Shown here piece after piece: positions 7,677 to 55,612 of a DNA stretch of 64,000 nt. This DNA is from Candidatus Uhrbacteria bacterium (GTDB lineage: Bacteria; Patescibacteriota; Patescibacteriia; UBA9934; GWF2-40-263), in assembly GCA_023246355.1 (NCBI GenBank), contig JAHFIQ010000003.1:85018-149017 (forward strand), in the 5' to 3' direction. Positions within the stretch are counted from its first letter, which is position 1. Every line of letters begins with the position of its first letter. A program made the position numbers and the translations under genes. The notes below the pieces were generated by a model. The model saw only the letters and a program-made list of their open reading frames with translations, ran no database searches and was not told the DNA's origin.

Positions 7677-7699
7677 AACTCAAACTAGTATATCAAAAA

Positions 7700-15334: not shown

Positions 15335-18019
15335 TCATGCTCCATGGCACTTCTTAAACTTTTTTCCTGATCCGCAATGGCAGGGTTCGTTGCGGCCGAG
15401 TTTTTCTTCTCGCATGCCTTCGACCCCCCTCATTCCCCCCTTGCCAAGGGGGGAAGCTTTCTGATTCCCCTCTACGGCTCCTTGCAGCACCACTCCTGCC
15501 TTCTGGAAGACAGATCGGCCGAGTTCCATTTGGACTTTCATGTCCACCGCGTGCTTGGCGTACTTAAAAAACGTATACGTAATTTCATGGTTGATTGATC
15601 CAAGAAGATTTTGGAACATACCAAAGCCTTCTCGTTTGTACTCAACCAGCGGATCGCGCTGACCGTAGCCTTGCAAGCCGATGCCGGTTCTCAGCGCACT
15701 CATCGCAGCAAGATGATCAATCCAGAGTGTATCGATCGATCGCAGAATCACCCCGCGCTCGATGTTGTAGATGCTCTTTTTGTCTTCGAAGACGTCGGCG
15801 AGCTGATCGTAGGTCTGGCGAACGACTTCCATGATTTTGATGATGACTTGCGTCCGATCTTGCGCCAGCCGCTCTCGCTCTTTTGTGGATGCTAGGTCAA
15901 GCGTTGTGAGTGAAGACTTCTGTGCATCCGTGAGCGGCACAATCGTCCCTACGGTCTCAACAATTTCTTTCATGTTCCATCCACCTTCTCCACCTTGTCC
16001 ACCCTCAGAACTATGAAACAACACGACCTGCTCCACCTCACCTTCGATCACATCCAGCACACGAGATCGAAGAGCTTCTGGTTCTTTTGCAAACAATTCA
16101 AGGATTTCCAAGCGTCTGGCATAGATGACTTCACGATGCTTGTTGAGCACGTCGTCATACTCGAGCAAATGTTTGCGTGAATCAAAATGATACCCTTCCA
16201 CGCGTGTCTGTGCCTTTTCAATTGAGCCGGTGATGAGTTTGTTTTCAATGGGCATGTCATCCGGAATTCCGAGGCGGTCCATCATGCCTCGCGCACGGTC
16301 TGAACCGAAGATCCGCATGAGTCCATCTTCCATAGACAAATAAAACTGGGTGGAACCTGGATCGCCTTGGCGACCTGAACGTCCGCGCAATTGATTATCG
16401 ATGCGCCGAGCGTCGTGGCGCTCCGTGCCGATCACATGCAATCCTCCAAGTTCTTTGACACGCGCTTCTTCCTCAGGCGTTGCTGGATTTCCGCCAAGCT
16501 TTATGTCGACTCCGCGTCCTGCCATGTTAGTGGCAATCGTCACCGCGTGAGTACGTCCTGCCTGGGCGATAATTTCCGCCTCGCGATCGTGATTTTTCGC
16601 ATTCAATACTTCATGCCTGACCCCCGCGTTTGTCAAAAGCAGGGACAGCACCTCATTTTTTTCCACGCTCACGGTACCCACCAAGACGGGTTGACCTTTT
16701 TCTTGAAGCGTCTGAATTTCTTTGACGACCGCCTCAAACTTTCCCTTTTCACTCTTAAAAATTTTGTCTCCTAAGTCAACCCGCTCCACAGGTTTGTTCG
16801 TTGGGATCTCTACGACTTCCAAATTGTAGATCTTGGAAAATTCTTCGGCTTCGGTTGCCGCGGTTCCGGTCATGCCTGACAACTTGTGATACAAACGAAA
16901 AAGATTCTGGAACGTAATGGTCGCAAGTGTTTGGCTCTCACGCTGGATCTGCACGCCTTCTTTTGCCTCGATGGCTTGATGAATCCCTTCGGAGAATCGG
17001 CGGCCCTGCATCAGACGTCCAGTAAATTCATCCACAATAATCACCTCACCTTCCTTGACCACATAATGGACGTCCTTTTGATAGTTGGCACGAGCTCGGA
17101 GCGCAGAATCAGCGTAGCGTTGATATTGTCCTTGATCGATCGCATAGAGATTTTCGATTCCAAGCGCTCGTTCAATATGTTCAATGCCTGTTTCTGTCAG
17201 CGTGGCCGCACGCATTTTTTCGTCCACATTATAATCTTCGTTCTCTTTCAACGAAGCCACGATCTGCGCAAACCGATAGTAGAGGTCATTGGATTTCTCC
17301 GCAGGTGCGGAGATGATAAGTGGTGTGCGAGCTTCGTCGATCAGGATGGAATCGATTTCGTCAACGATCGCGTAATGCAATTCGCGCATGACGCATGCCT
17401 CAATGCTCGGCGCCATGTTGTCGCGCAAATAATCAAATCCAAATTGATTGTTGGTGCCGTAGGTGATGTCCGCTTGGTAGGCTTCGCGGCGAGAGACCGA
17501 TCTGAGTCCATGCGAAGCCGCGGGATCAAACAGGAGTCCTCCTTCATGCTGAATCACACCAACACTCATGCCAAGCGCATGAAAAATTTGCCCCATCCAT
17601 GCGGCATCGCGACGGGCCAGATAATCGTTGACCGTCACCAGATGACAACCCTGACCACGAAGAGCATTCGCGTAGAGCGCAAGCGTTGAGGTGAGTGTTT
17701 TTCCCTCACCAGTACGCATCTCAGCTATCTGTCCACGATGGAGCGTGAGCCCACCAATGAGCTGAACATCAAAATGGCGCTGCCCAAGTGTTCGTTTTGC
17801 GACCTCTCGTACCACCGCAAAGGCCTCGTACACAAGATCATCAAGAGCCACGCCTTGTGCGAGGCGCGATTTAAACTCGGAGGTTTTTCCTTTCAGTTCA
17901 TCGTCCGTGAGCGATGCAATCGAAGGCTCGAGCGCGTTAATGCTCTCGATTTCACGAAACAGACTTCCGATGAGTTTCTTGTTTGGATCCCCAAAAAGAA
18001 GTTTCAAGACTCTGGACAT
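15335..18019 (-). CDS. secA: preprotein translocase ATPase SecA
   Basis: 894 aa; MRTGEGKTLTSTLALYANAL Walker A region and DEAD motor. C-terminal zinc finger CHCGSGKKFKKCHG. Linker contains an in-frame palindromic-element insertion at 15414-15445. Confidence 0.97.
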   Translation of the reverse strand: MSRVLKLLFGDPNKKLIGSLFREIESINALEPSIASLTDDELKGKTSEFKSRLAQGVALDDLVYEAFAVVREVAKRTLGQRHFDVQLIGGLTLHRGQIAEMRTGEGKTLTSTLALYANALRGQGCHLVTVNDYLARRDAAWMGQIFHALGMSVGVIQHEGGLLFDPAASHGLRSVSRREAYQADITYGTNNQFGFDYLRDNMAPSIEACVMRELHYAIVDEIDSILIDEARTPLIISAPAEKSNDLYYRFAQIVASLKENEDYNVDEKMRAATLTETGIEHIERALGIENLYAIDQGQYQRYADSALRARANYQKDVHYVVKEGEVIIVDEFTGRLMQGRRFSEGIHQAIEAKEGVQIQRESQTLATITFQNLFRLYHKLSGMTGTAATEAEEFSKIYNLEVVEIPTNKPVERVDLGDKIFKSEKGKFEAVVKEIQTLQEKGQPVLVGTVSVEKNEVLSLLLTNAGVRHEVLNAKNHDREAEIIAQAGRTHAVTIATNMAGRGVDIKLGGNPATPEEEARVKELGGLHVIGTERHDARRIDNQLRGRSGRQGDPGSTQFYLSMEDGLMRIFGSDRARGMMDRLGIPDDMPIENKLITGSIEKAQTRVEGYHFDSRKHLLEYDDVLNKHREVIYARRLEILELFAKEPEALRSRVLDVIEGEVEQVVLFHSSEGGQGGEGGWNMKEIVETVGTIVPLTDAQKSSLTTLDLASTKERERLAQDRTQVIIKIMEVVRQTYDQLADVFEDKKSIYNIERGVILRSIDTLWIDHLAAMSALRTGIGLQGYGQRDPLVEYKREGFGMFQNLLGSINHEITYTFFKYAKHAVDMKVQMELGRSVFQKAGVVLQGAVEGNQKASPLGKGGMRGVEGMREEKLGRNEPCHCGSGKKFKKCHGA

Positions 18020-18448: not shown

Positions 18449-19401
18449 AATCCTAAATAAGCTACTTCCTCTTCTAACTGTATCCCAAGTTCGTTCCGTG
18501 TGCGAGTTTTGACAAGTGCAACGAGCTGAACCACTTCATCGGCCGTGGCGTTTCCGAGATTCACCACAAAATTTCCATGCATCTGACTGATCATGGCCTG
18601 ACCGATCTTTGTGCCTTTGAGATCCAACTGGTCGATGAGCCAGCCCGCAGAGAGCCTGCGAGCTGACAACATCTCTGGTGGTATATCGAGTTTTTGAGAA
18701 AGTCGTTGCAGCTCAGTTTCATCCTGGATCTGATAATTTTTAAACAGACATCCTGCTGATCCGGCATCAAGCGGCTGAGAGGATTTGCGCTTCATAAGCT
18801 TATCATCGAGTTCGGCTTTCAGCTCTCGCGCATCGCCTTCTTCTAGTTCAAACGTAGCTGAGAGAACAATGTCGTCGGTGTGTTTAAGCACGGACTCACG
18901 ATAACCAAGCTTCAAATCCACCTTATCTACTTTTTCCACCTTCCCACCTCTTAAGACCTCAACACTCACCAACCGATCCTTCATCTCTCCACCAAAACAT
19001 CCGGCATTTCCACGCACGCCGCCGCCAACCGTTCCAGGGAGCGAAATCGCCCAGGTGAGTCCTTTGAGTCCGGCGTTTGCCGTGGCTCTGGCAAGCGCGG
19101 AAGACAAAACTCCTGCCTGCGCCACGACACGTGTGCCATGAATTTCGTAAGTTCGCATCGCGATTTTGATAACGATCCCATCAAATCCCGCGTCAGAGGC
19201 AAGCGTGTTTGAACCGCCACCAAAAACGACAAACGGAATCCTGTTTGTCTTGGCAAGATCAATAACCTGTTGAAGTTCCTCCATGGTTCGGACTTCGACA
19301 AACCACTTGGCTGGTCCACCGATCCGAAAGTTCGTGTGCTTTGAAAGCAGCTCGTTTTCAAGAACGCGTGAGCCAACGATGTGTCGCAGAGATTCTGTCA
19401 T
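18445..19401 (-). CDS. murB: UDP-N-acetylenolpyruvoylglucosamine reductase MurB
   Basis: FAD-binding HTNFRIGGPAKWFVEV and FVVFGGGSN motifs; 4-bp overlaps with hpf and murC. Confidence 0.92.
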   Translation of the reverse strand: MTESLRHIVGSRVLENELLSKHTNFRIGGPAKWFVEVRTMEELQQVIDLAKTNRIPFVVFGGGSNTLASDAGFDGIVIKIAMRTYEIHGTRVVAQAGVLSSALARATANAGLKGLTWAISLPGTVGGGVRGNAGCFGGEMKDRLVSVEVLRGGKVEKVDKVDLKLGYRESVLKHTDDIVLSATFELEEGDARELKAELDDKLMKRKSSQPLDAGSAGCLFKNYQIQDETELQRLSQKLDIPPEMLSARRLSAGWLIDQLDLKGTKIGQAMISQMHGNFVVNLGNATADEVVQLVALVKTRTRNELGIQLEEEVAYLGF

Positions 19402-20753: not shown

Positions 20754-20762
20754 ATTGTAGCA
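20754..20762 (-). promoter_or_regulatory. extended -10 promoter (TGCTACAAT) placed for a leaderless murC mRNA
   Basis: Coding-strand TGcTACAAT followed by only 9 nt before the murC ATG. Confidence 0.45.
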
Positions 20763-20763
20763 T

Positions 20764-20866
20764 AGGTAGACAAGGTGGATTAGGTAGACAAGGTGGCAAG
20801 GAAATTTGAAATCCCTCATCCACCTGATCCACCTCTTCCACCTTATCTACCTCCTCAAAATGAAAA
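20764..20866 (-). repeat. AGGTAGACAAGGTGG direct repeats plus inverted CCACCT/CTACCT repeats upstream of murC
   Basis: aggtagacaaggtgg at 20764-20778 and 20782-20796 (18-bp period). Inverted copies atccacctgatccacctcttccaccttatctacct at 20811-20866. Confidence 0.6.
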
Positions 20867-24901: not shown

Positions 24902-24906
24902 GCTGA

Positions 24907-25032
24907 GACCTCTGCAAAACTCGCGATCTTGCGTTTCACGGGCGCCCGTCGACCCCACTCTACATAGATAACCTACGTTTCGTGGGGCTCGACAGCCCGT
25001 TCAACGCAATCTCATCGAGTTTTTGAGAGGTC
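24907..25032 (-). repeat. MITE-like structured repeat, copy D (inverted orientation, diverged core)
   Basis: Termini GACCTCTGCAAAACTCGCGATCTTGCG ... CGCAATCTCATCGAGTTTTTGAGAGGTC match the reverse complement of copies A-C. The core has diverged. Overlaps the 3' end of CDS 25012-25419. Confidence 0.7.
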
Positions 25033-25419
25033 TCGTTTTGGTCGAGCTGCCGCAATCGCTCCAACGATAATCGCGACCACGTTGATCCAGTTGGCGTTGA
25101 TCACACCCCAATTCAAGATGCTGGACCAGCCAAGCCCATAGACAGGTCTCACAAGAACGATGGCTACCACGAACATGAGGATGATCCATCCAAAGGCGGT
25201 GACAAAACGCGCAGACCAGTTATTTTGAGCCCGACGAAAATAGAGATAACTGACTAGCAGGGTCCACAAAGGTGTAAAAATATTGACCGCAACATAGACG
25301 GCCGGATGTGCGGTCGCCTGATAAGCGCTCACCAGAAGAAACGAGACTGGATACCACACAAGAACGTACAGGAGAAAAAAGGCAAACCATCGCTTCGTGA
25401 AATAAAATGAGTCGTTCAT
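25012..25419 (-). CDS. small polytopic membrane protein (hypothetical)
   Basis: 135 aa with four hydrophobic segments. The last ~7 codons derive from repeat copy D. Confidence 0.4.
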   Translation of the reverse strand: MNDSFYFTKRWFAFFLLYVLVWYPVSFLLVSAYQATAHPAVYVAVNIFTPLWTLLVSYLYFRRAQNNWSARFVTAFGWIILMFVVAIVLVRPVYGLGWSSILNWGVINANWINVVAIIVGAIAAARPKRDLSKTR

Positions 25420-26580: not shown

Positions 26581-26593
26581 GTTTCACTCAGAT

Positions 26594-26621
26594 TATAACA
26601 TAAACGCGGCTTGCTTGTGCG
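26594..26621 (+). promoter_or_regulatory. putative dnaB promoter (TTGCTT-16-TAAGAT), short leader
   Basis: cTTGCTTgtgcggctcctcgtgcTAAGATgcacgacgttATG; about 10 nt between the -10 and the ATG. Confidence 0.35.
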
Positions 26622-26636: not shown

Positions 26637-28127
26637 ATGCACGACGTTATGTCCAAAGATCGCATTCCCCCACACAACCTTGAGGCCGAGCAATCGTTGC
26701 TTGGCTGTTTGTTGATTGATCGCGACGCCATCATCAAGGTCGCCGATGGGGTGCATGGTGAAGATTTTTACCGGGAGGCGCATCAAAAAATTTTCGAGGC
26801 TGTGCTTCAATTATTTGAACGCCATGATCCCATCGATATCTTGTCCGTGGGCAATCGCCTCGAAGAGCAAGGTCTCACGGCTCGAGTGGGAGGTCGTGCG
26901 TATCTCGTTGAATTATCAAACATGGTACCGACGTCTGCTCATGTCGTGCATTACGGTGAGATCGTTCAAAAAAAAGCAACCCTTCGCCGTTTGCTTTCCG
27001 CGGCATCCGAAATCACCACCATTGGTTTTGACGAAGACGAGGATGTAGAAATGTCGATCGATGCTGCTGAGCGCGCGCTGTTCAATGTCTCGGAAAAATA
27101 TAACAAGCAGACCTTCGTTTCCATTCGCTCTGTCTTACACGACGCATTTGATCGCATCGATGAATTGCACAAAGGCCAAGGCAAGTTGCGCGGTGTGACC
27201 ACGGGCTTTCGTGAGCTCGATAACCTTCTCGCAGGACTCCAAAAATCTGACTTGGTGATTTTGGCGGCCCGTCCATCGGTTGGAAAAACATCGTTAGCAT
27301 TGGATATCGCACGGCAAATAGGTGTGGAAGCAAAAATTCCTGTTGGATTCTTTTCGCTGGAAATGTCCAAGGAACAACTCGTGGATCGCATGATTTGCGC
27401 TCAGGCGAACGTGGATCTTTGGAAACTGCGCACCGGAAGACTCTCAGATGCGGACGATGACTTTCCTCGCATCGGTCATGCACTTGGCGAACTTTCCGAA
27501 GCACCCATCTTCATCGACGACTCGGCAACTCTGAACGTCATGCAACTGCGTACCAAAGCCAGACGACTCAAAACCGAACATGGGCTTGGCATCATCATGG
27601 TCGACTATCTCCAGCTCATGGAAGGACGATCGCGCAAAGGTTCTGACAACCGCGTACAAGAGGTTTCCGAAATTTCTCGCGGCCTCAAGCAGATCGCCAA
27701 GGAATTGAACGTGCCTGTGCTTGCTCTGGCGCAGCTCTCTCGTGCCGTGGAACTTAACAAGCCTGCCATTCCTCGACTCTCCCATCTGCGCGATTCAGGA
27801 TCGATTGAGCAGGACGCGGACGTGGTATTGTTCATCTATCGCAAAGCCGCGGACCGAGGATTTCGCACGGAAGATATTCCACCTGAGGAAGCAAACATCG
27901 CTGAGATCCACATCGCCAAGCATCGCAATGGCCCCACCGGCATGGTCAGACTCTTCTTTGAAAAAAAACGCGCGTCGTTTTTGAACCTCGATACCAAACA
28001 CGGCGCGCCACCTCCACCCGCGGCCAAGGAATCAGAGGTCGGAGGATTCGCCCCGTTTGCGCAAGCCCCACAGCGCAACATTGCTCCCCCTCCTGTGGAT
28101 CCAAATCCTGGATTCTCACCCCCCTAA
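26637..28127 (+). CDS. dnaB: replicative DNA helicase DnaB
   Basis: Walker A ARPSVGKTSLALD, Walker B IIMVDYLQLM and an N-terminal DnaB helical domain, with an extra Pro-rich C-terminal tail. Confidence 0.95.
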   Translation: MHDVMSKDRIPPHNLEAEQSLLGCLLIDRDAIIKVADGVHGEDFYREAHQKIFEAVLQLFERHDPIDILSVGNRLEEQGLTARVGGRAYLVELSNMVPTSAHVVHYGEIVQKKATLRRLLSAASEITTIGFDEDEDVEMSIDAAERALFNVSEKYNKQTFVSIRSVLHDAFDRIDELHKGQGKLRGVTTGFRELDNLLAGLQKSDLVILAARPSVGKTSLALDIARQIGVEAKIPVGFFSLEMSKEQLVDRMICAQANVDLWKLRTGRLSDADDDFPRIGHALGELSEAPIFIDDSATLNVMQLRTKARRLKTEHGLGIIMVDYLQLMEGRSRKGSDNRVQEVSEISRGLKQIAKELNVPVLALAQLSRAVELNKPAIPRLSHLRDSGSIEQDADVVLFIYRKAADRGFRTEDIPPEEANIAEIHIAKHRNGPTGMVRLFFEKKRASFLNLDTKHGAPPPPAAKESEVGGFAPFAQAPQRNIAPPPVDPNPGFSPP

Positions 28128-28145
28128 TCCACCTTTTCCACCTCT
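28125..28145 (+). repeat. CCACCT repeat (TAATCCACCTTTTCCACCTCT) abutting the ybaB start codon
   Basis: Same CCACCT family as upstream of dnaK and murC. Confidence 0.5.
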
Positions 28146-28451
28146 ATGTTCTCAAAACTCAAACACATCCGCGATCTCAAAAAGCAAGGCAAGGACATGC
28201 AAAATGAACTCGCGACCATCGTCAACGAAGGCTCTGCTGCCTGGGGCAAAGTCAAACTGGTTGTGAATGGAAATCGCGAGCTCATGAGTGTGTCGATCGA
28301 TGACGAGATGATGAAGGACCGACCCAAGCTCGAGGAAGCCATCAAGAACGCATTCAAGGACGCCACGGGGATGAAGTTTCAAATGAAGCTCGCCAAGAAG
28401 ATGCAGGACATGGGAGGAATGGATATCCTGAAGAAATTTGGTGGTGAATAG
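28146..28451 (+). CDS. ybaB: nucleoid-associated protein YbaB/EbfC
   Basis: 101 aa; KLVVNGNRELMSVSIDDEMM YbaB signature. Confidence 0.92.
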   Translation: MFSKLKHIRDLKKQGKDMQNELATIVNEGSAAWGKVKLVVNGNRELMSVSIDDEMMKDRPKLEEAIKNAFKDATGMKFQMKLAKKMQDMGGMDILKKFGGE

Positions 28452-32572: not shown

Positions 32573-33581
32573 AAAATAACGCGGTAAGCAGCATCACCAG
32601 ACACAGCACGATGAGCGCCACGAGTTTTTCACGGCTCTGAAGGAAAAGCGCGGTCACACCGAACGCTGCGGCGACCGCCACATACAAAATCACGATCCGT
32701 GTTTGTCCCCAACCGAGTGCGAGCAGCCGATGGTGAAGATGTTTTTTGTCGCCGAGAAAGACGCGAGCAATGCCGCCTTCGCGAAAACGCCGAGAGATCA
32801 CCCACAGAACATCCAAAAGGGGAATGCCCAGGACCAGCAAAGCGGTTGCGACTTTGCCGCCAGAGATCACCGCAAGGATTCCAAGCATGAATCCGACAAA
32901 CGTCGAGCCACCTTCACCCAAAAAAATCGAGGCAGGATGCACATTCCAAAACAAGAATCCGAGATAGGATCCAATCGTCACAGCTGAAAGCAGGGCAACA
33001 TCTGGTTGAAAATAAGCAGCGGTAAGTGACAGCAGCATGATCATCACGGCTCCAACGGAGGTGACAGAGGTCGCCAGTCCATCAAGCCCATCCAAAAATT
33101 TGGTCGTATACATGACCAGCATGAGCCAGACAAACACCAGGATGTCAGATTGCCAGCTCAAAAGCACGATCACCCCTCCAAACGGATTGGTCAGCTTATC
33201 CACTTCGATTCCAAACGCGATCACTGTGAGCGTGGCCAGGATCGGAGCAACGATCGTGGCGTGTGCAGGCAGATCAAAACGATCATCGAGGATCCCACCG
33301 ATCATGAGGATCAACCCTCCGATCAAGACGCCGATGTAGTGGGCGGTCACGATCTCTCCGGATGTGAGTGCCTCGCTGGTTGAGAGAATGCCAATCACCA
33401 CCGCGCTGACAGAAACAAAAATCGCCAGTCCTCCTAACCGCGCCACAGGCCGCGTGTGAATTTTCCGGCTGCTCGTCGGTTTGTCAACGACACCCATCAC
33501 CAGGGCGACACGCCGAATCAACACCGTCAAGAGGAACGAAAGGATGAACGCCAACAGTCCCCAGAGGATGAGCAAAGTCAT
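32541..33581 (-). CDS. glycosyltransferase family 4 polyprenyl-phosphate sugar-1-phosphate transferase (MraY/WecA family)
   Basis: Polytopic protein with GGILDDRFDL (DDxxD) and KHLHHRLLALGW (MraY-like HHH region). It could be the mraY that is missing from the ftsI-murF cluster. Confidence 0.7.
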   Translation of the reverse strand: MTLLILWGLLAFILSFLLTVLIRRVALVMGVVDKPTSSRKIHTRPVARLGGLAIFVSVSAVVIGILSTSEALTSGEIVTAHYIGVLIGGLILMIGGILDDRFDLPAHATIVAPILATLTVIAFGIEVDKLTNPFGGVIVLLSWQSDILVFVWLMLVMYTTKFLDGLDGLATSVTSVGAVMIMLLSLTAAYFQPDVALLSAVTIGSYLGFLFWNVHPASIFLGEGGSTFVGFMLGILAVISGGKVATALLVLGIPLLDVLWVISRRFREGGIARVFLGDKKHLHHRLLALGWGQTRIVILYVAVAAAFGVTALFLQSREKLVALIVLCLVMLLTALFFVQKERHAQR

Positions 33582-36196
33582 AGAGCGGCGGCTTCTTCTA
33601 TGCGAATCCCTCCTCCTGCCTCAAGCACAATCGTGTCACGTCGTTTCACTTTTCCTTCCAACAGAGCGTTGGCAATCGCGTTGTCAACTTCCTCCTGTAC
33701 CAGACGCCGCAGAGGTCGCGCGCCAAATTTTGGATCAAAGCCTTTTTGCGCGAGCTCGGCAATCGCCTCAGGAGCCGCCCGAAATCCGATGCCTTTTGGC
33801 TCCAACCGTTTTGCCACCTGGGCCATAAACAATTCTGTAATCGAAAGGACATCTTCACGTGCAAGAGGCTTGAACACAATCACCCCATCAAACCGATTCA
33901 AAAATTCAGGTCGATAAATTCCGCGCAATGCTTCTTCCAACAACTGCGTTTTCACACTCGCCAGATCTTCGCCACGTCCTACGGCATCTTGGATATACTG
34001 CGTGCCGGCATTGGAAGTCGCGATGATGATCGTGTTGGTAAAATCAACCGTGCGTCCTGCCGCATCTGTCAAACGTCCGTCATCAAACACCTGCAAAAAG
34101 AGATTCAAAATATCGGCGTTTGCTTTTTCAAGCTCATCCAACAGGACAATGGAAAAAGGATTTTTCCGCACGGCCTCGGTGAGCAACCCACCTTGTCCTG
34201 ATCCTGGCACACCGATCATCCGATGGATGCTCGAGGGATCTTGATACTCGGACATGTCCAGGCGAATCATCAGGTCCTCTGAACCGAAGTAGGTCTGTGC
34301 GACGGTTTTCGCCAGCTCTGTCTTTCCCACACCAGTTGGTCCGAGAAACAAAAACGTGGCGATGGGTCGAGCTTGGGAACGCAATTCTGTCCGTGCTCGA
34401 CGGAGCGCGGCGGACACGGCTGACACGGCTTCGTCTTGGCCGATCACGCGACCATGCATGCGGCTTTCAAGGGCCAACAACTTTTCTGTTTCATCGGATT
34501 GAACCGAAGTGGTTGGGATTCCCGTCTTGCCGGCGACGATCAGACTCACATCTTCCCCTGTCACCAACGCATCCTTACCTCTCGTCTTCGCCACCTGCAG
34601 CGCGGTCTCACGAGCAATTTCAATCGCCTTCTTTGGCAAGTAGGTTTCATGCATGTACCGATCGGTGAGTGTCACGGCCTTCTCCACGGCCTCGTAGCTG
34701 AACACCACGTGGTGCTCATATTCCATTCCACCAATTTTGGATTCAAGGATGTGAATGGCCGCTTTGTGATCGGGTTCCAACACATCGACCTTCTGAAATT
34801 CGCGACCGAGCACAGATCGCTCCACCACTTCGCTGTAGGCCTGTGGCGTGGTGGTGGCAATCGCGAATGTCCCGCTGCGTGAGAGAAAATCCACAAGCGT
34901 TGAGGCGAGATCGTTGGCCCCGTTTTGCGAAACGAGTTGATCGATGTCGGTGATCGCTAGAATAATATTGCGAGACTTGGCGACTTCCGAGAGCACAAGC
35001 AGCAACCTCTCCTGAGCCTCTGCCTCAGAGGCACCAGACACAAGATGAGGAATCGAAAGACGCACAAGACGTTTGTCTTGCAAAATCGTTGGCACACACT
35101 CTTCCACCATCAGCTCAGCCACACCAGCCACGATGGATGTTTTTCCTACCCCTTCAGATCCCACGAGGATCACACTTTGACGACCACCTTCGATCACGCG
35201 AAACAATTCTTCGATCTCGCTCTCGCGCTCAATCAGCATGGGCAATCTGCCGGACACGGCCGCGGTGGTGAGATCCTCAGAAAGGGCATCGAGCATGGGC
35301 GTGACCACGCTGGTCATTGATCGATTCATGGCGCCTGTGGGTTTGTAGAGCGCGGCTTTTTTAAAACGTTCGTAGCGCTCACGCATCTTTTCGTGAATGC
35401 CAAGCCACGCCACCATGTTCCAAAATTGATTCTCATCCACGTGGTTGTCCAAGAGGAGCTCCTGCAAAAAAGGATCTGCTTGATAGCTTGCCGCAAACAC
35501 CGCAAGCGCGGTCACGTGCTCTTGTTTTTCTCGCAGAGCCCCACGAAAGCCTTCCAACAGGACCCGCTCAGCATCCAAAGAAAACTGCGTGGGTTTACTC
35601 AGTGGCCGCGTTGAAAGCCGGCGTGTCAGAGGATCTTTCAGTACATCGACTGTCAACCCAAGACGATTAAACACAACATGCACGTTCACATCATCAAGCG
35701 CCCCGACAAAAAGATGAATCGGCTCGACCGTTGCGTGTCCGTAGGAATTTGCCAGCTCAAAGGCCGCCTCAACGGCTTTCTTGGCATCGGGTGAAAAGAA
35801 CGTTTCGATGTTGATCGCCTCGTTCACTGCATCCACCTCTTCCACCTTCCCCACCTCTTCTCCCACTGGCATCTTCACTTCACGATGCGCCACAAGACGC
35901 TTGTGATACCAAACAAACAACAGCGCGAGCCCTGTTCCCCAGACGAACACGAGAGTCCAAGAAGGCTTCATCCAAAAGGCAGATGTCAAAACACGTGTCG
36001 GATCTGTGATGAGCAACAGAAGGATCGCCACCGCCGCAAAAACGCAGGTCTTCACCACACTTAAGATAAACAACACCTGCATGGCTTTTTCGTGAGCTGA
36101 GCGATCCATCACGATTGCCTCGTCCAGGACCGCAGACCAGACATAGGTCTTGCCACCAAGTTGTACGGCGAGCTTTGGCATATCAGAAAAGGACAC
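33578..36196 (-). CDS. ClpA/ClpC-like double-AAA+ chaperone with an N-terminal transmembrane region
   Basis: Two AAA modules (GSEGVGKTS and GPTGVGKTE Walker A; DELEKA sensor region) about 255 aa apart (no ClpB M-domain). The first ~110 aa contain 2-3 hydrophobic helices. An alternative start at MPVGEEVG would remove them. Confidence 0.8.
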   Translation of the reverse strand: MSFSDMPKLAVQLGGKTYVWSAVLDEAIVMDRSAHEKAMQVLFILSVVKTCVFAAVAILLLLITDPTRVLTSAFWMKPSWTLVFVWGTGLALLFVWYHKRLVAHREVKMPVGEEVGKVEEVDAVNEAINIETFFSPDAKKAVEAAFELANSYGHATVEPIHLFVGALDDVNVHVVFNRLGLTVDVLKDPLTRRLSTRPLSKPTQFSLDAERVLLEGFRGALREKQEHVTALAVFAASYQADPFLQELLLDNHVDENQFWNMVAWLGIHEKMRERYERFKKAALYKPTGAMNRSMTSVVTPMLDALSEDLTTAAVSGRLPMLIERESEIEELFRVIEGGRQSVILVGSEGVGKTSIVAGVAELMVEECVPTILQDKRLVRLSIPHLVSGASEAEAQERLLLVLSEVAKSRNIILAITDIDQLVSQNGANDLASTLVDFLSRSGTFAIATTTPQAYSEVVERSVLGREFQKVDVLEPDHKAAIHILESKIGGMEYEHHVVFSYEAVEKAVTLTDRYMHETYLPKKAIEIARETALQVAKTRGKDALVTGEDVSLIVAGKTGIPTTSVQSDETEKLLALESRMHGRVIGQDEAVSAVSAALRRARTELRSQARPIATFLFLGPTGVGKTELAKTVAQTYFGSEDLMIRLDMSEYQDPSSIHRMIGVPGSGQGGLLTEAVRKNPFSIVLLDELEKANADILNLFLQVFDDGRLTDAAGRTVDFTNTIIIATSNAGTQYIQDAVGRGEDLASVKTQLLEEALRGIYRPEFLNRFDGVIVFKPLAREDVLSITELFMAQVAKRLEPKGIGFRAAPEAIAELAQKGFDPKFGARPLRRLVQEEVDNAIANALLEGKVKRRDTIVLEAGGGIRIEEAAAL

Positions 36197-36560
36197 CGAT
36201 CAAGGAACCAAAAAAACCAAACAGGGCAAGAGGAAAAGCAAAGATGTACAAAAAGAAAAGGAAGACGGCGACCAGAAACCAGGCAACCACTCCGAGACTT
36301 CGGATGACAATCACCGCCGAGCGCACACCGATGCTGATGAGTGAGCCAGCAATCGAATCATCACCATACATCGGCACAAACCAATTTTTCACCCAGACGT
36401 CGACACCAAAAAATTTCACTGATCCGCGGACGGAATTCAGCAGCCATAAGGATGTTTCGGACAAGCCTCGCGAGTACCACCACACAGGCCAAAACAACCC
36501 TTCCCGGATTCCTGTTCCTAAAAGCGTGCGAAAGACGAGTTGTCGTGAGGGCGTGATCAT
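36183..36560 (-). CDS. small membrane protein (hypothetical)
   Basis: 125 aa hydrophobic ORF overlapping the clp-like gene start by 14 bp. Weak support. Confidence 0.3.
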   Translation of the reverse strand: MITPSRQLVFRTLLGTGIREGLFWPVWWYSRGLSETSLWLLNSVRGSVKFFGVDVWVKNWFVPMYGDDSIAGSLISIGVRSAVIVIRSLGVVAWFLVAVFLFFLYIFAFPLALFGFFGSLIGVLF

Positions 36561-36577
36561 GCAGATAATCTTATCAC

Positions 36578-38881: not shown

Positions 38882-38888
38882 ACGGTGA

Positions 38889-38916
38889 GTAGACGGTAGA
38901 CAGTTGACAGTAGACA
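38889..38916 (-). repeat. GTAGAC repeat block (downstream flank of the four-helix-bundle gene, upstream of dnaJ)
   Basis: gtagacggtagacagttgacagtagaca; inverted relative to the block at 39275-39304. Confidence 0.6.
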
Positions 38917-38917
38917 A

Positions 38918-39271
38918 CTACCTTTGAGACTCGCGCAAGGAACACAATTTTTTCCAAAGGATATTGGATGAAGCATCCATTCGCGACCAAGTATCTTCGC
39001 TGATATAAGAAAGTTTTAAAGCGATTTTGAAAGCCGCATGAACTTCAACAAGAGAAGCAAGACCAATAGTAATGTATCTTGAGAATTCTTTTCTACTTCC
39101 ACGTGCAGAACCTTCAGCGAGATTAAGATAGATCGAGTAAGCCGCTCTACGAACCTGACTTGTTAATCCGTACTTCTCCTCAGGAGGAAAGGATGCGGTC
39201 GTTGCATGCACCGCATCAACGAAGGCAAGTATGTCCTTCCCGACCCTCAATTCTTCATATCGAAATCCCAT
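38918..39271 (-). CDS. four-helix-bundle protein (23S rRNA intervening-sequence protein family, TIGR02436-like)
   Basis: EEKYGLTSQVRRAAYSIYLNLAEGSARGSRKEFSRYITIGLASLVEV matches the family consensus (E.RYGLTSQLRRAA.SI..NIAEG..R...KEF..FL.IA.GSL.E). Confidence 0.9.
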   Translation of the reverse strand: MGFRYEELRVGKDILAFVDAVHATTASFPPEEKYGLTSQVRRAAYSIYLNLAEGSARGSRKEFSRYITIGLASLVEVHAAFKIALKLSYISEDTWSRMDASSNILWKKLCSLRESQR

Positions 39272-39274
39272 ATT

Positions 39275-39304
39275 CTGTCTACCGTCTACTGTTAACCGTC
39301 TACC
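39275..39304 (-). repeat. GTAGAC repeat block (upstream flank of the four-helix-bundle gene)
   Basis: Coding strand reads GGTAGACGGTTAACAGTAGACGGTAGACAG immediately before the ATG. Confidence 0.6.
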
Positions 39305-39770: not shown

Positions 39771-41669
39771 CTATTCCTTCTTCTCTTGAAACTCCGCATC
39801 AATTGGCTCGTCTTTTTTTTCTTCCTGCCCACCTTCTCCACCTTGTCCACCTGTTCCACCTTGTCCACCTGCCGTTTGATACATCTTCGCACCCACTTTC
39901 TGTGCAGCGGTCGACAACTCGTCGGCGGCTTTCTTGATAGCTTCGTGATCATCACCATCCTTCACGGCCTTGAGCGCAGCAATCTTGTCTTCGATGTCTT
40001 TCTTTTCCTCAGGAGTGGCTTTTTCCCCAGCCTCTTTCATCATTTTCTCCGTTGTGTAAATCATGGTATCTGCTAAATTCTGATGCTCAACCTTTTCTTT
40101 GAGCTTCTTATCTTCCTCTGCATGACTTTCCGCGTCGCGCTTCATGCGTTCCACTTCGTCCTTGGAAAGTCCTGTGGATCCTTGAATGGTAATTTTCTGA
40201 CTCGTACCCGTGCCTTTGTCCGTGGCCGACACATTCAAAATGCCGTTGGCATCAATATCAAACTTCACTTCCACCTGAGGCACGCCGCGAGGTGCCATGG
40301 GGATGCCGGACAAAATAAATCGACCGAGCGTCTTGTTGCCAGACGCCACTTCACGTTCCCCTTGCAGCACATGAATCTCCACCGTTGTCTGGTTGTCTGC
40401 GGCTGTGGAAAAAATTTGTGACTTGCCAGCAGGAATCGTCGTATTGCGTTCAATCAGTTTCGTCATCACGCCACCGAGTGTTTCAATGCCAAACGAGAGT
40501 GGGGTGACATCCAACAGAAGCACGTCTTTCACTTCACCTTGAAGAACGCCCGCTTGCACCGCAGCGCCAAGGGCCACGACTTCGTCTGGATTCACGGTGA
40601 TGTTCGGCTTCTTTCCAAAAAAATCCTCAACGGTTTTTAAGACCAACGGCATGCGGGTCATCCCTCCGACCATGACGATTTCTTCGATCGCTCCCTTGTC
40701 GAGTCCCGCGTCTTTGAGCGCGGCCTTGAGCGGCACGAGTGTTTTGGCAACCAAGTCATGACACAGCTCTTCAAGCTTGCTGCGCGTCATGCTGAGCACC
40801 AAGTGCTTGGGGCCATTTGCATCAGAGGTAATAAACGGCTGGTTGATTTCCGTTTGTGCGGCTGTGGAGAGTTCGATCTTGGCACGCTCAGCCGCATCTT
40901 TCACACGTTGAAGCGCCAGAGAATCCTTGGACAGATCAATCCCCTCTTGCTTCTTGAACTCCTCCAAAATCCAATCAATGATCACGCGATCAAAATCATC
41001 GCCGCCCAGATGGGTATCGCCATTGGTGGATTTGACTTCGACGGTATCTTCAGAAACTTCCAGCACAGACACATCAAACGTGCCGCCACCCAAATCGTAG
41101 ACCACAATTTTCTGACCTTTCTTTTTATCGAAGCCGTAGGCAAGGGCCGCCGCTGTTGGCTCGTTGATGATGCGACGCACCTTGAGACCAGCAATCTCGC
41201 CAGCGGTTTTTGTTGCCGCGCGCTGTGCGTCATCAAAATACGCCGGTACGGTAATAATCGCTTCCTCGATTTTTTCGCCAAGTTTTTCCTCCGCATCCGC
41301 TTTCAATTTTTGCAGCACCATCGCGGAAATTTCCTCAGGCGTGTATTCCTTCTCTGCCATCTTGATCGCGACTCCATCGCCGCGTTTCACAATTTCAAAC
41401 GGCATGACCTTTTGGTCACGCATGACTTCCGCATCGTCAAAACGACGTCCGATCAATCGCTTGATGGAGTACAACGTATTTTTCGGATTGGTGACCGCTT
41501 GTCGTTTGGCTGACAAACCCACAGAGCGTTCACCAGCTTTGTTGACCGAAACCATCGACGGGGTGGTACGGGCGCCTTCTTTGTTTTCCAAAACCTTGGG
41601 CTGACCACCTTCGATGATCGCCACGCACGAGTTGGTTGTTCCAAGATCGATTCCGAGAATTTTTGGCAT
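39771..41669 (-). CDS. dnaK: chaperone DnaK (Hsp70)
   Basis: [21 protein letters not shown] and [10 protein letters not shown] signatures; Gly-rich [15 protein letters not shown] tail. Confidence 0.98.
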
Positions 41670-41764
41670 ATGGGAAAGGTATGTAAGGTAGACTAGGTAG
41701 ATGAGGTGGTAAAGAGGAATTGCACACCTCGGCCACCTTTTCCACCTTAACCACCTAAGTTGTT
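41670..41764 (-). repeat. AGGTGG direct repeats and CCACCT/CTACCT inverted repeats in the grpE-dnaK intergenic region
   Basis: Coding strand AGGTGGTTAAGGTGGAAAAGGTGG...CCACCTCATCTACCTAGTCTACCTTACATACC. The first repeat overlaps the grpE stop codon. Confidence 0.6.
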
Positions 41765-42217
41765 AATAATCACCTTCGCTGGACGGACAATGCGGTCACC
41801 GAGCTTCCAGCCGCGATGGATGACTTCCAAAATTTGATCATCGAGCGCGCTCTCATCCGTTTTTTCACCAACCGCTTCGCACGACGTGCTATCGAACAGC
41901 TCTCCGGCGTTTCCAAATGCCTCCAGTCCCAGATTTTTCAAAACACCTTCCAGACCCTGTCGTACATGCAGAATGCCTGCGAGCCATTTTTCTATTTCCG
42001 GTGAACCTCCTTCTGGTTTGTGCTTGAGTGCTTGATCGAAATGATCAATCGATTCGATCAGATCGTGGGCGAGAAATTCTTTTGTGCCTTCACGAATGGC
42101 CGTGCGCTCTTTGGCGAGATCTTTTTTGAGATTATCGTAGTCGGCCAAAGCGCGTTTCCATCCTGTGAGATACTCGTCACATTTCACACATGGGTCGATT
42201 GGTGTTTTATCACTCAT
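41747..42217 (-). CDS. grpE: nucleotide exchange factor GrpE
   Basis: Start set at MSDKTPIDP (ATG RC of 42215-42217). The track ORF extends to 42424 only because repeat copy A lacks stops in that frame. Confidence 0.88.
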
Positions 42218-42285
42218 AAGACATTTTTCAAAATAAGATGAGATCGGCTTGAACGGGCTGGCAGACGCTGAAAACCTACTCATGG

Positions 42286-42409
42286 GACCTCTGCAAAACT
42301 CGATGAGATTGCGATGCGCGGGGAAGCCAGCCTCCGAGACGTAGTGAAAACTACGTTGAGGAGGTGGCGGGGCCCCGCAAGTCGCAAGATCGCGAGTTTT
42401 GCAGAGGTC
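42286..42409 (+). repeat. MITE-like structured repeat, copy A (124 bp)
   Basis: GACCTCTGCAAAACTCGATGAGATTGCGATGCGCGGGGAAGCCAGCCTCCGAGACGTAG-tgaaaa-CTACGTTGAGGAGGTGGCGGGGCCCCGCAAGTCGCAAGATCGCGAGTTTTGCAGAGGTC. Terminal inverted repeats of ~17 bp. Lies in the hrcA-grpE intergenic region. Confidence 0.8.
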
Positions 42410-43108: not shown

Positions 43109-43135
43109 TTAGCACTCACCATTATAGAGTGCTAA
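43109..43135 (-). promoter_or_regulatory. CIRCE operator (TTAGCACTC-N9-GAGTGCTAA), perfect match
   Basis: ttagcactcaccattatagagtgctaa immediately upstream of hrcA. Confidence 0.9.
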
Positions 43136-47289: not shown

Positions 47290-47295
47290 TCGTGA

Positions 47296-47419
47296 GACCC
47301 CTGCAAAACTCGATGAGATTGCGGTGCGCGGGGAAGCCAGCCACCGAGGCGTAGCGATAGCTACGTTGAGGTGGTGGCGGGGCCCGCAAGCCGCAAGATC
47401 GCGAGTTTTGCAGGGGTCT
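47296..47419 (+). repeat. MITE-like structured repeat, copy B (124 bp)
   Basis: GACCCCTGCAAAACTCGATGAGATTGCGGTGCGCGGGGAAGCCAGCCACCGAGGCGTAG-cgatag-CTACGTTGAGGTGGTGGCGGGGCCCGCAAGCCGCAAGATCGCGAGTTTTGCAGGGGTC. Confidence 0.8.
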
Positions 47420-47461
47420 CTTGTATTGACAACATCACTACATCTGCTACCCTGGTATTAT

Positions 47462-48056: not shown

Positions 48057-48131
48057 GGCCCCATCGTCTAACGGTTAGGACGGCAGGTTCTCATCCTGCA
48101 AACCGGGGTTCGATTCCCCGTGGGGTCACCA
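48057..48131 (+). tRNA. tRNA-Glu (anticodon CUC), CCA encoded
   Basis: Cloverleaf: acceptor GGCCCCA/TGGGGTC, D-arm GTCT-AACGGTTA-GGAC, anticodon arm GCAGG-TTCTCAT-CCTGC, T-arm CGGGG-TTCGATT-CCCCG, 3' ACCA. Confidence 0.85.
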
Positions 48132-48173
48132 ACTAAAACACCTGAGTTTTCTCGGGTGTTTTAGTTGGTGACC
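48124..48173 (+). repeat. 19-bp perfect inverted repeat that includes the tRNA-Glu 3' acceptor/CCA end
   Basis: GGTCACCAACTAAAACACC-tgagttttctcg-GGTGTTTTAGTTGGTGACC, followed at 48175-48215 by an inverted partial copy of the tRNA T-arm region (GTGGGGAATCGAAC) interrupted by the palindrome GCACATGCCctgcGGCATGTGC. Confidence 0.7.
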
Positions 48174-48291
48174 TAAGCACATGCCCTGCGGCATGTGCGT
48201 GGGGAATCGAACGCCGGAGCCATATGCGGCCAGCAGGCCGCATGGCGAGGCGGTGCCCAGCCCGAGCCGCTGCAGCGGCGAGAGGCGCGGG

Positions 48292-54257: not shown

Positions 54258-55447
54258 AATCCAAGTCCAAAACTAAACAACGATCCCTTTCCTCGTGGAT
54301 TTTTTCCTGAACGCACCTCATCCCCATCACTCACCCCATCGCCGTCCGTATCAGCGCGGCCTCGATCTGTTCCATAAAACGCTTCCAAAATATCATCGAG
54401 TCCATCGCCATCTTGGTCATCGGATGCTTCGACAGTGGTGACGGGCAAGCGCGCAGTCTGCTCATCCAAGAGTGTAGCCTCGCCCAAACTTAGACTCGCT
54501 CCCGCAGACTCAGGAAACACGGCATGCAAAATATCCACAAACGAAATGGCATCAGAAGGCGCGGCGATGTCGCTCATCTCGTTGAACTTGGAAAAATCCA
54601 CGCGTGCATCAACCGGAATCAGATCCGTACTCCCCTCCTGTACAAATCCACCGGCCGCCTGCACTCGATACAGAACGTGGTCATCCATGCCGATCCAAAA
54701 CCGAAGCGTGAGTCGTGCGAGTTGCTTGGCCTGCGTGTGAGCAAGAATTCGATCTGTATCTTCTGGTTCCTTTCCTTCTTTGGCGCGAACAGCATCGAGC
54801 AGGAATGCTTCTGTTGCATCTTGATCAAACCTCCCGTCAATGATGTGGGTGTTGGTGCCATCGATGATCTCGGTAAGACCGTTATACTCGGCCACGACGA
54901 TATCGGTCAGCGCCAGCATGTAGCGAAGTCGAGTGATCGCGGCGGGATTCCAACCCGTCAGCGGCGTGATGAAGGTAAGCGGCGCCTGAAGCCCAGGCAC
55001 GATCTCACCCCAGCCTTCTATCTCTCCCTCATCAAAGACCACCCAGGTGTCACCATCAAATGACACACCTGGCACAGCAGGTCCAGGCACAGCGTAAGTC
55101 AGATACGTTTTTTCACCGATCGTCTTTACTTCACCTGAGAGATCTGTGTAATCATCGTTTTTGGAAATATGAATCACGCGAAACTCTGTATCCTGTTCTA
55201 GATTCTCGTCCTCATCAGCCTGCACATTGCCTGAGGCATACAAAGTCGTGCTCACACGTTCCCCGCCTTGCTCGCGGCTCCAGCTAAAACCGTCGTCATG
55301 GGAAAAACTCGAGAGACTCGCCATGGCAATGGCCATGCGCCGCATCTCAACCTCAGGTCGAAACTTGGTGAGCACCACGTAAGCAGCAAACGTCAAAGCC
55401 ATCACGACCACCACGCCAAGGGTTATAAATGTCAATAGGTGTTTCAT
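54254..55447 (-). CDS. membrane-anchored hypothetical protein with C-terminal calcium-binding-like DxDxDG repeats
   Basis: Start set at MKHLLTFITLGVVVVMALTF (ATG RC of 55445-55447). C-terminus DQDGDGLDD...DTDGDGVSDGDE. The track extension to 55552 runs through repeat copy C. Confidence 0.5.
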   Translation of the reverse strand: MKHLLTFITLGVVVVMALTFAAYVVLTKFRPEVEMRRMAIAMASLSSFSHDDGFSWSREQGGERVSTTLYASGNVQADEDENLEQDTEFRVIHISKNDDYTDLSGEVKTIGEKTYLTYAVPGPAVPGVSFDGDTWVVFDEGEIEGWGEIVPGLQAPLTFITPLTGWNPAAITRLRYMLALTDIVVAEYNGLTEIIDGTNTHIIDGRFDQDATEAFLLDAVRAKEGKEPEDTDRILAHTQAKQLARLTLRFWIGMDDHVLYRVQAAGGFVQEGSTDLIPVDARVDFSKFNEMSDIAAPSDAISFVDILHAVFPESAGASLSLGEATLLDEQTARLPVTTVEASDDQDGDGLDDILEAFYGTDRGRADTDGDGVSDGDEVRSGKNPRGKGSLFSFGLGL

Positions 55448-55450
55448 ACA

Positions 55451-55574
55451 GACCTTTGCAAAAATCGATGAGATTGCGATGCGCGGGGAAGCCAGCCGCC
55501 GAGACGTAGGTAATCCTACGTTGAGGTGGTGGCGGGGCCCCGCAAGTCGCAAGATCGCGAGTTTTGCAAAGGTC
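55451..55574 (+). repeat. MITE-like structured repeat, copy C (124 bp)
   Basis: GACCTTTGCAAAAATCGATGAGATTGCGATGCGCGGGGAAGCCAGCCGCCGAGACGTAG-gtaatc-CTACGTTGAGGTGGTGGCGGGGCCCCGCAAGTCGCAAGATCGCGAGTTTTGCAAAGGTC. Confidence 0.8.
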
Positions 55575-55612
55575 TATAACAAAAGAGACAGCGTTTGCTG
55601 TCTCTTATTCTA

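Follow-up and report, generated by a model that had tools for sequence, protein, structure and literature searches.

What are the blocks of AGGTGG, CCACCT and GTCTAC repeats that stand immediately before dnaK, murC, ybaB and dnaJ in a genome of Candidatus Uhrbacteria? We examined them in a 64-kb window, by which we mean the whole stretch of DNA under analysis (positions 85,018 to 149,017 of contig JAHFIQ010000003.1), and in related contigs compared with it, which are designated by L-numbers. An original prediction, made from the letters of the window, had offered two explanations, namely hairpins that sequester the Shine-Dalgarno (SD) sequence in the manner of an RNA thermometer, or operator sites for an unknown regulator. 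We favour a third, to which we assign a probability of roughly 0.55: the blocks would be members, lacking an open reading frame (ORF), of a lineage-restricted family of hairpin elements whose arms are built of tandem units, similar to the intervening sequences (IVSs) of ribosomal RNA (rRNA) and to MITEs (miniature transposable elements with inverted repeats). The blocks have a common architecture and period, recur at defined gene positions in other genomes, are patchily present at orthologous junctions and have arms in common with cassettes that enclose a PF05635 gene.

Arrays of 9-nt units in the gaps between genes

Two full elements, at the grpE–dnaK junction and upstream of murC, and one half element, between dnaB and ybaB, are present in the window, and the strings quoted in the original prediction for dnaK, murC, ybaB and the four-helix-bundle gene next to dnaJ were all found in place. 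The bipartite layout that it described, with direct purine-rich repeats followed by inverted pyrimidine-rich repeats that reach the start codon, is real and recurrent; it had not mentioned the strict 9-nt period, the equal 23-nt centres or four arrays that lie in frame within coding sequence. A full element consists of a purine arm, a centre of 23 nt at both dnaK and murC, and an inverted CYACCT arm. At the grpE–dnaK junction (minus strand), the 5′ arm at 41733..41756 contains three units with a 9-nt period (AGGTGG TTA AGGTGG AAA AGGTGG), the 23-nt centre at 41710..41732 reads CCGAGGTGTGCAATTCCTCTTTA, and the 3′ arm at 41677..41709 runs CCACCT CAT CTACCT AGT CTACCT (41709-41686) and then a degenerate ATACCT (41682-41677). 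The stop codon of grpE (41747-42283, minus strand) falls within the first arm at 41749-41747, the end of the GrpE protein (...LGG) is encoded within the first AGGTGG unit, and the ATG of dnaK (39771-41669, minus strand) at 41669 lies 7 nt beyond the 3′ arm. The element upstream of murC, also on the minus strand, is composed of the 5′ arm AGGTAG ATA AGGTGG AAG AGGTGG ATC AGGTGG (20820..20852), the 23-nt centre ATGAGGGATTTCAAATTTCCTTG (20797..20819) and the 3′ arm CCACCT TGT CTACCT AAT CCACCT TGT CTACCT (20764..20796). An extended −10 box, TGCTACAAT, follows on the same strand at 20754..20762, 9 nt before the murC ATG (20744), and is not part of the repeat. The 18-nt gap between dnaB and ybaB is filled by the half element as TAA TCCACCTTT TCCACCTCT ATG (28125-28148); its two units, at 28129..28143, are listed on the minus strand and read CCACCT on the sense (plus) strand. 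The forms of the repeat unit include AGGTGGANN, beside the heptamer GGTAGAC.

The motif is non-random in the window. AGGTGG occurs 56 times against 24.6 ± 5.5 expected, the pair AGGTRG-N3-AGGTRG is found 18 times against 0 in 100 dinucleotide-preserving shuffles, and copies of AGGTRG are nearly all spaced by 9, 18 or 27 nt. Five of the nine arms in the window are intergenic, although just ~6% of it is intergenic.

The four coding arrays, all on the sense strand (minus) and in frame, lie in a hypervariable Gly-rich loop of secA (15981..16003), in murB (18918..18949; GGKVEKVDKVD), in the N-terminal region of a Clp-type AAA ATPase gene (35833..35856; EEVGKVEEVD) and in the C-terminal tail of dnaK (39829..39870; five units). 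Rickettsia palindromic elements (RPEs) can sit in frame within genes, and in-frame insertion of this kind was considered and rejected for the coding arrays, since solved MurBs can be aligned to the MurB segment GGKVEKVDKVDL with no gap and the SecA loop, which differs in every relative, shows a difference of only 2 residues. The MurB segment is common to relatives that are at least 84% identical, more distant relatives read DGEIIELKKEDL, and one MurB homolog (P0020) carries a Gly-rich insertion of 6 residues where the array lies. The coding arrays may represent the same DNA-level phenomenon as the intergenic elements, or independent codon-level repeats that use GGT GGA.

Elements of the same type were found in other genomes. 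A plain probe of three AGGTGG units returned no usable matches from public collections because it was swamped by Gly-Gly-X coding repeats, and it was replaced by an inverted pattern. This pattern matched look-alikes in one Patescibacteria metagenome-assembled genome (MAG) and one Ca. Uhrbacteria MAG, same-type elements in a MAG with a GC content of 0.49 that is labelled Gammaproteobacteria, and also unrelated families with a 9-nt period (Actinomycetota, Acidobacteriota and others). When metagenomes were probed with a 3+2-unit pattern, 73 loci were obtained, ~45 of which (GC 0.48-0.58) carry the unit AGGTRGA[A/T]N, and 40 elements were analysed after removal of duplicates. Among the oriented cases, ~22 of 24 have a long same-strand ORF that ends −11 to +18 nt from the first unit and the ATG of a long ORF 0-24 nt past the last unit; the upstream stop codon TAG often overlaps the first unit (T/AGGTRG). 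The downstream genes include dnaK, murC, murG, mreB, rplA, rpsL, rpsP, frr, topA, trxB, nrdR, clpC, a gene for a secreted protein and others, that is, a co-directional housekeeping set with no heat-shock specificity. A full element measures ~70-95 nt. Its 5′ arm holds 2-5 tandem units of 9 nt, each AGGTRGA followed by two free bases, its centre varies, and its inverted 3′ arm is made of CYACCT units. It occupies the short gap that separates two co-directional genes and abuts the stop of the first and the start of the second. As the intergenic gaps of these genomes are just a few nucleotides long, an insertion of any kind into one of them would come to lie flush in this way. Genomes of the candidate phyla radiation (CPR) are tiny and tightly packed, so that 70-95-nt non-coding inserts flush with the starts of dnaK, mreB, rplA and murC are unexpected. 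The arrays will also mislead motif hunters and gene callers, as ORFs run into them at grpE and at the TGT gene of L217.

Other features of these and of unrelated arrays were recorded during the same searches. Many CPR-type centres (L161, L183, L193, L198, L209, L125) are tandem 7-nt quasi-palindromic units, TTCGGAW or TTCCGAA, and their lengths cluster at ~15, 22, 29 and 36 nt because they are built of 7-nt units. The outermost units of elements are often spaced by 8 nt, not 9 (AGGTGGGTAGGTGG / CCACCTACCCACCT). Conserved inverted AAGGTGGCG arrays, with GAAGGTGGC three times and then GCCACCTTC three times, occur in Actinomycetota (Microbacterium, Leucobacter, Herbiconiux and Mycobacterium; L129, L130, L137, L138, L140, L141, L147 and L149), and high-GC soil contigs and Acidobacteriota MAGs contain long 9-nt arrays of AGGTAGGKC / GMCCTACCT.

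Within the family, conservation follows the unit. A unit flanked by two perfect units reads AGGTRG in 131 of 138 cases, a middle-unit test that lowers only in part the bias of a metagenome set retrieved by a pattern requiring perfect cores, which inflates the apparent conservation of the core. Position 7 is A in 85% of the units, positions 8 and 9 hold ~0.25 bit, 35% of the units are AGGTAG, and the orientation of the arms is convergent in 109 cases against 0. Mirrored R/Y pairs across the two arms were observed in the proportions 52/15/22/33, with 51.6/14.6/22.4/33.4 expected under independence, mirrored spacer triplets formed 106 Watson-Crick pairs against 115 ± 6 after shuffling, with no excess complementarity, and compensatory changes between arms, the sign of an RNA structure under selection, were not found in this comparison. 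With no covariation between arms, the units (AGGTRGA plus two free bases) therefore seem to be constrained singly; they appear to behave like individually recognised words, with hairpin potential as a by-product of the inverted layout.

These figures bear on local slippage, by which microsatellite-like tandem duplications would have arisen separately at each site and the inverted arms would be coincidental. Unit number does vary between orthologous copies, the insertion in P0020 lies at an array, and the secA and dnaK coding arrays are in Gly-rich low-complexity loops. However, slippage copies whole units, whereas positions 8-9 differ between neighbouring units around a 7-nt core that is ~98% conserved, one and the same unit turns up at numerous sites across numerous genomes, and the arms are always convergent. 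We consider this explanation improbable; it is disfavoured for the intergenic elements and is a possible origin of the secA and dnaK coding arrays.

The thermometer proposal was weighed against predicted folds and gene context. AGGUGG is partly complementary to the canonical 3′ end of 16S rRNA, which CCACCU resembles. The dnaK and murC elements have stable predicted folds (−34.7 kcal/mol, z −4.7, and −60.1 kcal/mol, z −9.4), in both cases with the sense strand as the better folder of the two, and one copy precedes dnaK, which recalls RNA thermometers (ROSE, fourU) and the HrcA-bound controlling inverted repeat of chaperone expression (CIRCE) in lying upstream of a heat-shock gene with hairpin potential. 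An SD-sequestering hairpin or thermometer that controls translation of dnaK and other genes would agree with these points, but SD-like motifs stand at a functional distance in just ~2-3 of 45 window genes, and the AGGTAG form, more than a third of all units, destroys the SD-like GGTG. In the predicted folds it is the anti-SD-like arm that adjoins the ATG, the distal, SD-like arm stands 50-90 nt away from it and the AUG-proximal tail is unpaired, leaving neither SD nor AUG sequestered, and hairpins of −35 and −60 kcal/mol are far too stable for a thermometer. Across the family, the sense strand folds better in only about half of 26 oriented elements, and in the sense orientation G.U pairs (19) are not significantly above A.C (13). 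The same elements precede many non-stress genes, the murC copy is upstream of the transcription start, and two relatives with GrpE 77-78% identical (L241 and L242) are without the element at dnaK. A search of Rfam at gathering thresholds matched no family, thermometers included, and permissive thresholds gave just sub-threshold look-alikes of miRNA-precursor hairpins. In addition, a perfect and canonical CIRCE operator, TTAGCACTC-N9-GAGTGCTAA, with TATAAT inside its spacer, overlaps the GTG start of hrcA at 43109-43135, separate from the AGGTRG element, and the heat-shock operon (hrcA-grpE-dnaK-ybaK-like-PF05635-dnaJ) is therefore already under classical HrcA control. The thermometer reading is largely refuted and we give it very little credence; the elements are not heat-shock- or dnaK-specific regulators.

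Presence and absence at orthologous junctions

Comparison with related contigs revealed filled, empty and replaced sites at the same junctions. Between the TGT gene and a membrane-protein gene, the window has no element, and behind a terminator hairpin come TGATAAGAT and, after a further 7 nt, the ATG. At this place L217, with a DnaJ that is 86% identical, has a 4+4-unit element, and TGCTACAAT lies between the element and the ATG, again at 7 nt from the latter. With its first unit, the L217 element overlaps the unit-like CAGTGGATAG, which is TGT coding sequence in the window, and the end of the L217 TGT protein, ...WIGGIGG, runs into the array. The murC junction was compared in the window, L238, L239 and L240. 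In all four, an intrinsic-terminator hairpin closes the gene upstream and a −10 box precedes the ATG by 8-9 nt; the box has the extended form in three of them (the window, L238 and L240). The window carries the full element between terminator and −10, L238 a degenerate AGGTRG copy with a nested GC-rich palindrome, L239 nothing, and L240 two units of a different 9-nt family. Because the −10 is near the ATG and the intrinsic terminator is upstream of the element, the murC repeats are upstream DNA and not 5′ untranslated region of what would be a leaderless transcript, as had been proposed from the window alone. The nested palindrome of L238 (~170-310; ~130 nt, GC-rich, CCCGCCCGAACCCCGTCCGACC...GGTCGGGCGGGG) is a repeat of another type within the centre.

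The grpE–dnaK junction is filled in the window and in L170 (GrpE 65% and HrcA 53% identical), contains just four AACCTAC heptamers in L241 (GrpE 78%), and has unrelated hairpins in L242 (GrpE 77%) and L243 (63%). The junction between a DUF4012 gene and mreB is filled in four genomes in which the flanking protein is 57-82% identical, with variable unit numbers and centres and intact cores. Presence and absence at orthologous sites are thus polymorphic, as they are for MITEs; filled and empty sites alike show no target-site duplication, and no donor copy was identified. In both cases encountered so far, a unit-like motif stood at the empty site. The pattern across these aligned junctions is one of apparent gain, loss and turnover at tolerant sites, together with long persistence at some.

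The same junctions supply the main rival to an element family, namely that the blocks are regulatory sites of the host. The 9-nt units would then be operator-like or UP-like sites in double-stranded DNA (or sites in mRNA) for a chromosomal global factor that controls or insulates housekeeping units, and the PF05635 cassettes described below would borrow these sites. Several observations fit such a factor: the units are conserved singly, with positions 8-9 free and no covariation between arms, the cores are intact at orthologous junctions despite only 57-65% identity of the flanking proteins, the elements adjoin start codons and promoters of housekeeping genes, and the coding arrays leave protein length unchanged, as expected for position-bound DNA sites. 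On the other hand, close relatives differ in the presence of the element at the same junction, the unit itself differs between related genomes (AGGTRG, TAGGWCC, CCTACAA), neighbouring sites with a 9-bp period face different sides of the B-DNA helix, no function unites the downstream genes, and no candidate regulator was identified. We therefore regard host sites as unlikely, though as the competitor to be taken most seriously. The operator sites of the original prediction are compatible with the data in the broad sense that the units look individually recognised; a dnaK- or heat-shock-specific regulon they are not.

Arms in common with PF05635 cassettes

The GTAGAC/GTCTAC blocks that had been reported for dnaJ and for the four-helix-bundle gene upstream of it are present, and four 7-nt units stand on each side of the latter gene; the block at dnaJ is therefore the 3′ flank of its neighbour and not dnaJ's own. 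The enclosed gene (38918..39271, minus strand, 117 aa) matches PF05635 with 89.2 bits (cut-off 33.8; E 2.5e-25; profile positions 1-103 of 106), and a profile of 16 homologs of the window protein matches Protein Data Bank entries 2GSC (X. campestris XCC0516, 5 chains) with E 1e-38 and 2RLD with E 3e-9. By these profile matches it is a member of the PF05635 / S23p / Avd-like family, named for the 23S rRNA intervening-sequence protein, and homologous to a solved homopentameric four-helix bundle. On the minus strand, the 5′ arm of the cassette (39277..39304) reads GGTAGAC GGTTAAC AGTAGAC GGTAGAC, with a 7-nt period, and ends 5 nt before the ATG of the ORF; the 3′ arm (38888..38915) reads GTCTACT GTCAACT GTCTACC GTCTACT and ends 6 nt before the dnaJ ATG (38881). 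The two arms are 86% complementary, and the minimum-free-energy structure closes the ORF into a loop.

The units of these arms recur in elements that lack the ORF. In reverse-complement reading, the dnaK and murC 3′ arms contain the heptamer GGTAGAC within their 9-mers AGGTAGACA/T. L175 and L222 have a PF05635 ORF framed by AGGTRG 9-mers of the same type as in ORF-less elements, and the inner junction of the PF05635-bearing copies, AGGTRGCCAGGATT, is also found in an ORF-less copy of L175. The flank unit type of the PF05635 gene of L240 likewise occurs without an ORF at its murC and ybaB–recR junctions. Inside arms of this kind no ORF other than PF05635 has ever been found. Each of the 13 PF05635 loci under study, five of which were fetched independently via protein homology, is flanked by short-period arrays, mostly inverted and in some cases direct. 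The flank units are lineage-specific (GGTAGAC, AGTAGAC, AGGTRGANN, GTTGAGTN, AGTGAG, TTGAACA, ATCAAC, GGCGGTT(T), TAGGWCC), and the PF05635 proteins of the window and L229, which are 67% identical, have the unit GTAGAC in common. The AGGTRG elements would accordingly be read as ORF-less counterparts of inverted-arm cassettes that enclose a PF05635 gene, related to them as MITEs are to insertion sequences, or as ORF-less rRNA IVSs are to those with an ORF.

A different PF05635 gene follows secA or a NUDIX gene in three relatives (L238 7201-7576, L239 14184-14754, L240 14677-15232), and the window is without one there. These genes have ATAGGWCCN 9-nt units before the ATG and again in the middle of a 180-aa ORF, and in L238 the ORF stops at the internal array.

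PF05635 proteins are very widespread, and to our knowledge no function is known for them outside diversity-generating retroelements (DGRs). The literature searched on the motif and on repeats around PF05635 genes yielded nothing beyond the IVS heptamers of Coxiella and the biology of Avd, and within it the association with cassettes outside rRNA is undescribed. The presence of arrays at every PF05635 locus examined, together with the ORF-less copies, gives a testable hypothesis on the ligand of PF05635 and on the nature of IVSs.

A close known parallel in ORF and layout is the rRNA IVS with an S23p ORF (Coxiella burnetii, Leptospira), in which the same ORF family is surrounded by inverted flanks that form a stem, as in the window cassette. 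The 23S IVS of Coxiella has 3-4 tandem heptamers (GACAGAT) right before the S23p ORF, with a copy number that varies by strain, and RNase III cuts at the first repeat (PMC4990558); four GGTAGAC-type heptamers stand directly before the ORF ATG in the window. Variable unit copy number, ORF-less versions and a sporadic phylogenetic distribution are further likenesses (PMC4990558). The rRNA IVS differs in that it sits in helix 45 or 25 of 23S rRNA, whereas the window elements lie in gaps between protein-coding genes and not in a 23S or 16S helix. They also differ in that the ORF-less copies are multi-copy in a genome and the arms consist almost wholly of 9-nt units; excision by RNase III has its precedent in Coxiella.

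Palindromic MITE-like repeats are the second point of comparison. They include the Correia elements of Neisseria, the enterobacterial repetitive intergenic consensus or intergenic repeat unit (ERIC/IRU), repetitive extragenic palindromes and bacterial interspersed mosaic elements (REP/BIME) and the RPEs of Rickettsia, some of which are processed by RNase III or form hairpins at mRNA ends. As a matter of general knowledge, they have in common with our elements a size of 70-150 nt, palindromy, multiple copies, a location in intergenic gaps within or between transcription units, and patchiness; the AGGTRG elements are short, non-coding, present in ~40 non-redundant copies and bounded by terminal inverted repeats. 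They are unlike these repeats in that no transposase-type partner or transposase-encoding parent was found in the 64-kb window and no target-site duplication at the compared junctions, in that the arms are tandem short units with two free positions and not a unique terminal inverted repeat, and in that the associated ORF encodes a four-helix-bundle protein. Mobilisation of REP/BIME-type elements by a REP-associated tyrosine transposase (RAYT, of the Y1 HUH type) was considered in the same comparison, with GT[AG]G as the REP head of each unit. REP sequences are headed by the tetranucleotide GTAG or GTGG, one or the other is contained in every unit, and the elements are intergenic, palindromic and multi-copy. 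The window has no Y1 transposase (Y1_Tnp), however, the arms are tandem 9-nt arrays and not a single imperfect palindrome of 20-40 nt, and the sole ORF inside such arms is PF05635, so that a RAYT origin seems most improbable.

The likeness that bears on function is to proteins that read arrays. TRAP is a ring-shaped protein that reads 11 (G/U)AG repeats in RNA, and our arrays resemble its target in having a conserved unit, free spacers and a fixed period; binding of the array by an Avd-like PF05635 protein is putative. The arrays usually have at most 5 units and accompany a family of homopentameric, positively charged proteins. Avd itself, a pentamer with positive charge, resembles S23 ribosomal proteins, and DGR RNA has Avd-binding stem-loops (10.1101/2023.10.23.563531). 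Avd is reported to work with a reverse transcriptase, for which the window has no gene.

If the blocks belong to an IVS-like and MITE-like element family, the following course of events may be envisaged. Where transcribed, as at grpE–dnaK, the elements would fold into long imperfect hairpins, which could act like rRNA IVS stems or Correia and ERIC sequences, either as sites of RNase III-type processing or as a hairpin at the mRNA end, and processing would leave expression of the next cistron unblocked. The conserved 7-nt unit would be the recognition unit of a multimeric nucleic-acid-binding protein, for which, by analogy with TRAP and Avd, the PF05635 pentamer would be the prime candidate. 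A bolder and tentative proposal, which we hold possible and no better than that, is that PF05635 pentamers are sequence-specific readers of tandem 7-9-nt repeats and form, together with inverted arms, a distinct class of hairpin element, with and without ORF, which colonises rRNA helices and intergenic gaps; ORF-less copies would then be protein-controlled sites of processing or expression in core operons (dnaK, mreB, rplA). If true, this would assign a role to a protein family that is large and enigmatic, and would account for what rRNA IVSs are.

Several points weigh against an element family of this kind. Processing by RNase III and binding by PF05635 are both argued by analogy, and the elements would be mobile if patchy presence, the one observation that points that way, is so explained. 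Intact cores at orthologous junctions across deep divergence are no less compatible with a role for the host than with selfish persistence. The apparent conservation of cores in the metagenome set is inflated by the retrieval bias described above. Given that the arms do not covary, hairpin formation is not demonstrably selected. The murC element has an intrinsic terminator on one side and the promoter −10 on the other, so that action at the RNA level is excluded there save by read-through. The in-frame coding arrays are not explained by element insertion. L192 combines AGGTRG ORF-less elements with a PF05635 gene that has GTTGAGT arms, and L238 has AGGTRG remnants and a PF05635 gene with TAGGWCC units; the pairing of protein and unit is therefore not one-to-one in the fragments seen.

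Other identities were rejected. DnaA boxes, which are also 9-mers (GGTGGATAA against TGTGGATAA), oriented motifs like Chi or the FtsK-orienting polar sequences (KOPS), and CsrA, Hfq and Rho sites were dropped, since they do not match the R of the unit, its 9-nt register, the inversion of the arms and the link to PF05635. Arrays of the tandem interspaced guide RNA (TIGR-Tas) type do not fit, as the 2-3 bases that vary in each unit could not serve as guides and a Tas gene is absent.

Gene starts and other repeats of the window

The closest named homologs of the window MurB are from Ca. Uhrbacteria (78-85% identity). Searches of the 64-kb window for transposase, integrase, RAYT and rRNA genes found none. 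An extended −10 (TGnTAnnnT) stands 5-10 nt before the start codon in several first genes of transcription units, with examples at 20754-20762, 36568-36576, ~26592-26600 and ~7687-7695. The scarcity of SD sites and the extended −10 of some genes fit leaderless or near-leaderless mRNAs, which suggests from promoter positions that such mRNAs are widespread in this Uhrbacteria genome. The hrcA mRNA is probably leaderless.

The ORF of the Clp/AAA+ ATPase (33578-36196) begins with an N-terminal extension of ~140 residues that has hydrophobic, membrane-like segments and precedes the Clp_N domain. It is overlapped by an upstream gene of 125 aa (36183-36560), and the start and topology given here for the ATPase are tentative. 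In the tRNA-Glu(CTC) region (48057-48217), a perfect 23-bp hairpin (48124-48173) follows the tRNA, and the T-arm has an inverted copy (48103-48119 / 48201-48217); these structures may be the remnant of an integration event at the tRNA gene.

A second MITE-like family, unrelated to the AGGTRG elements, has terminal inverted repeats GAGACCYCTGCAAAACTCG / CGAGTTTTGCAGRGGTCTC that lie ~90 nt apart, with four copies in the 64 kb (47294-47420, 42286-42409, 24905-25034 and 55442-55583). The copy at 42286-42409 sits between hrcA and the true start of grpE, and because of it the longest grpE ORF appears 47 codons too long. In L241-L243, which are without this copy, hrcA abuts grpE.

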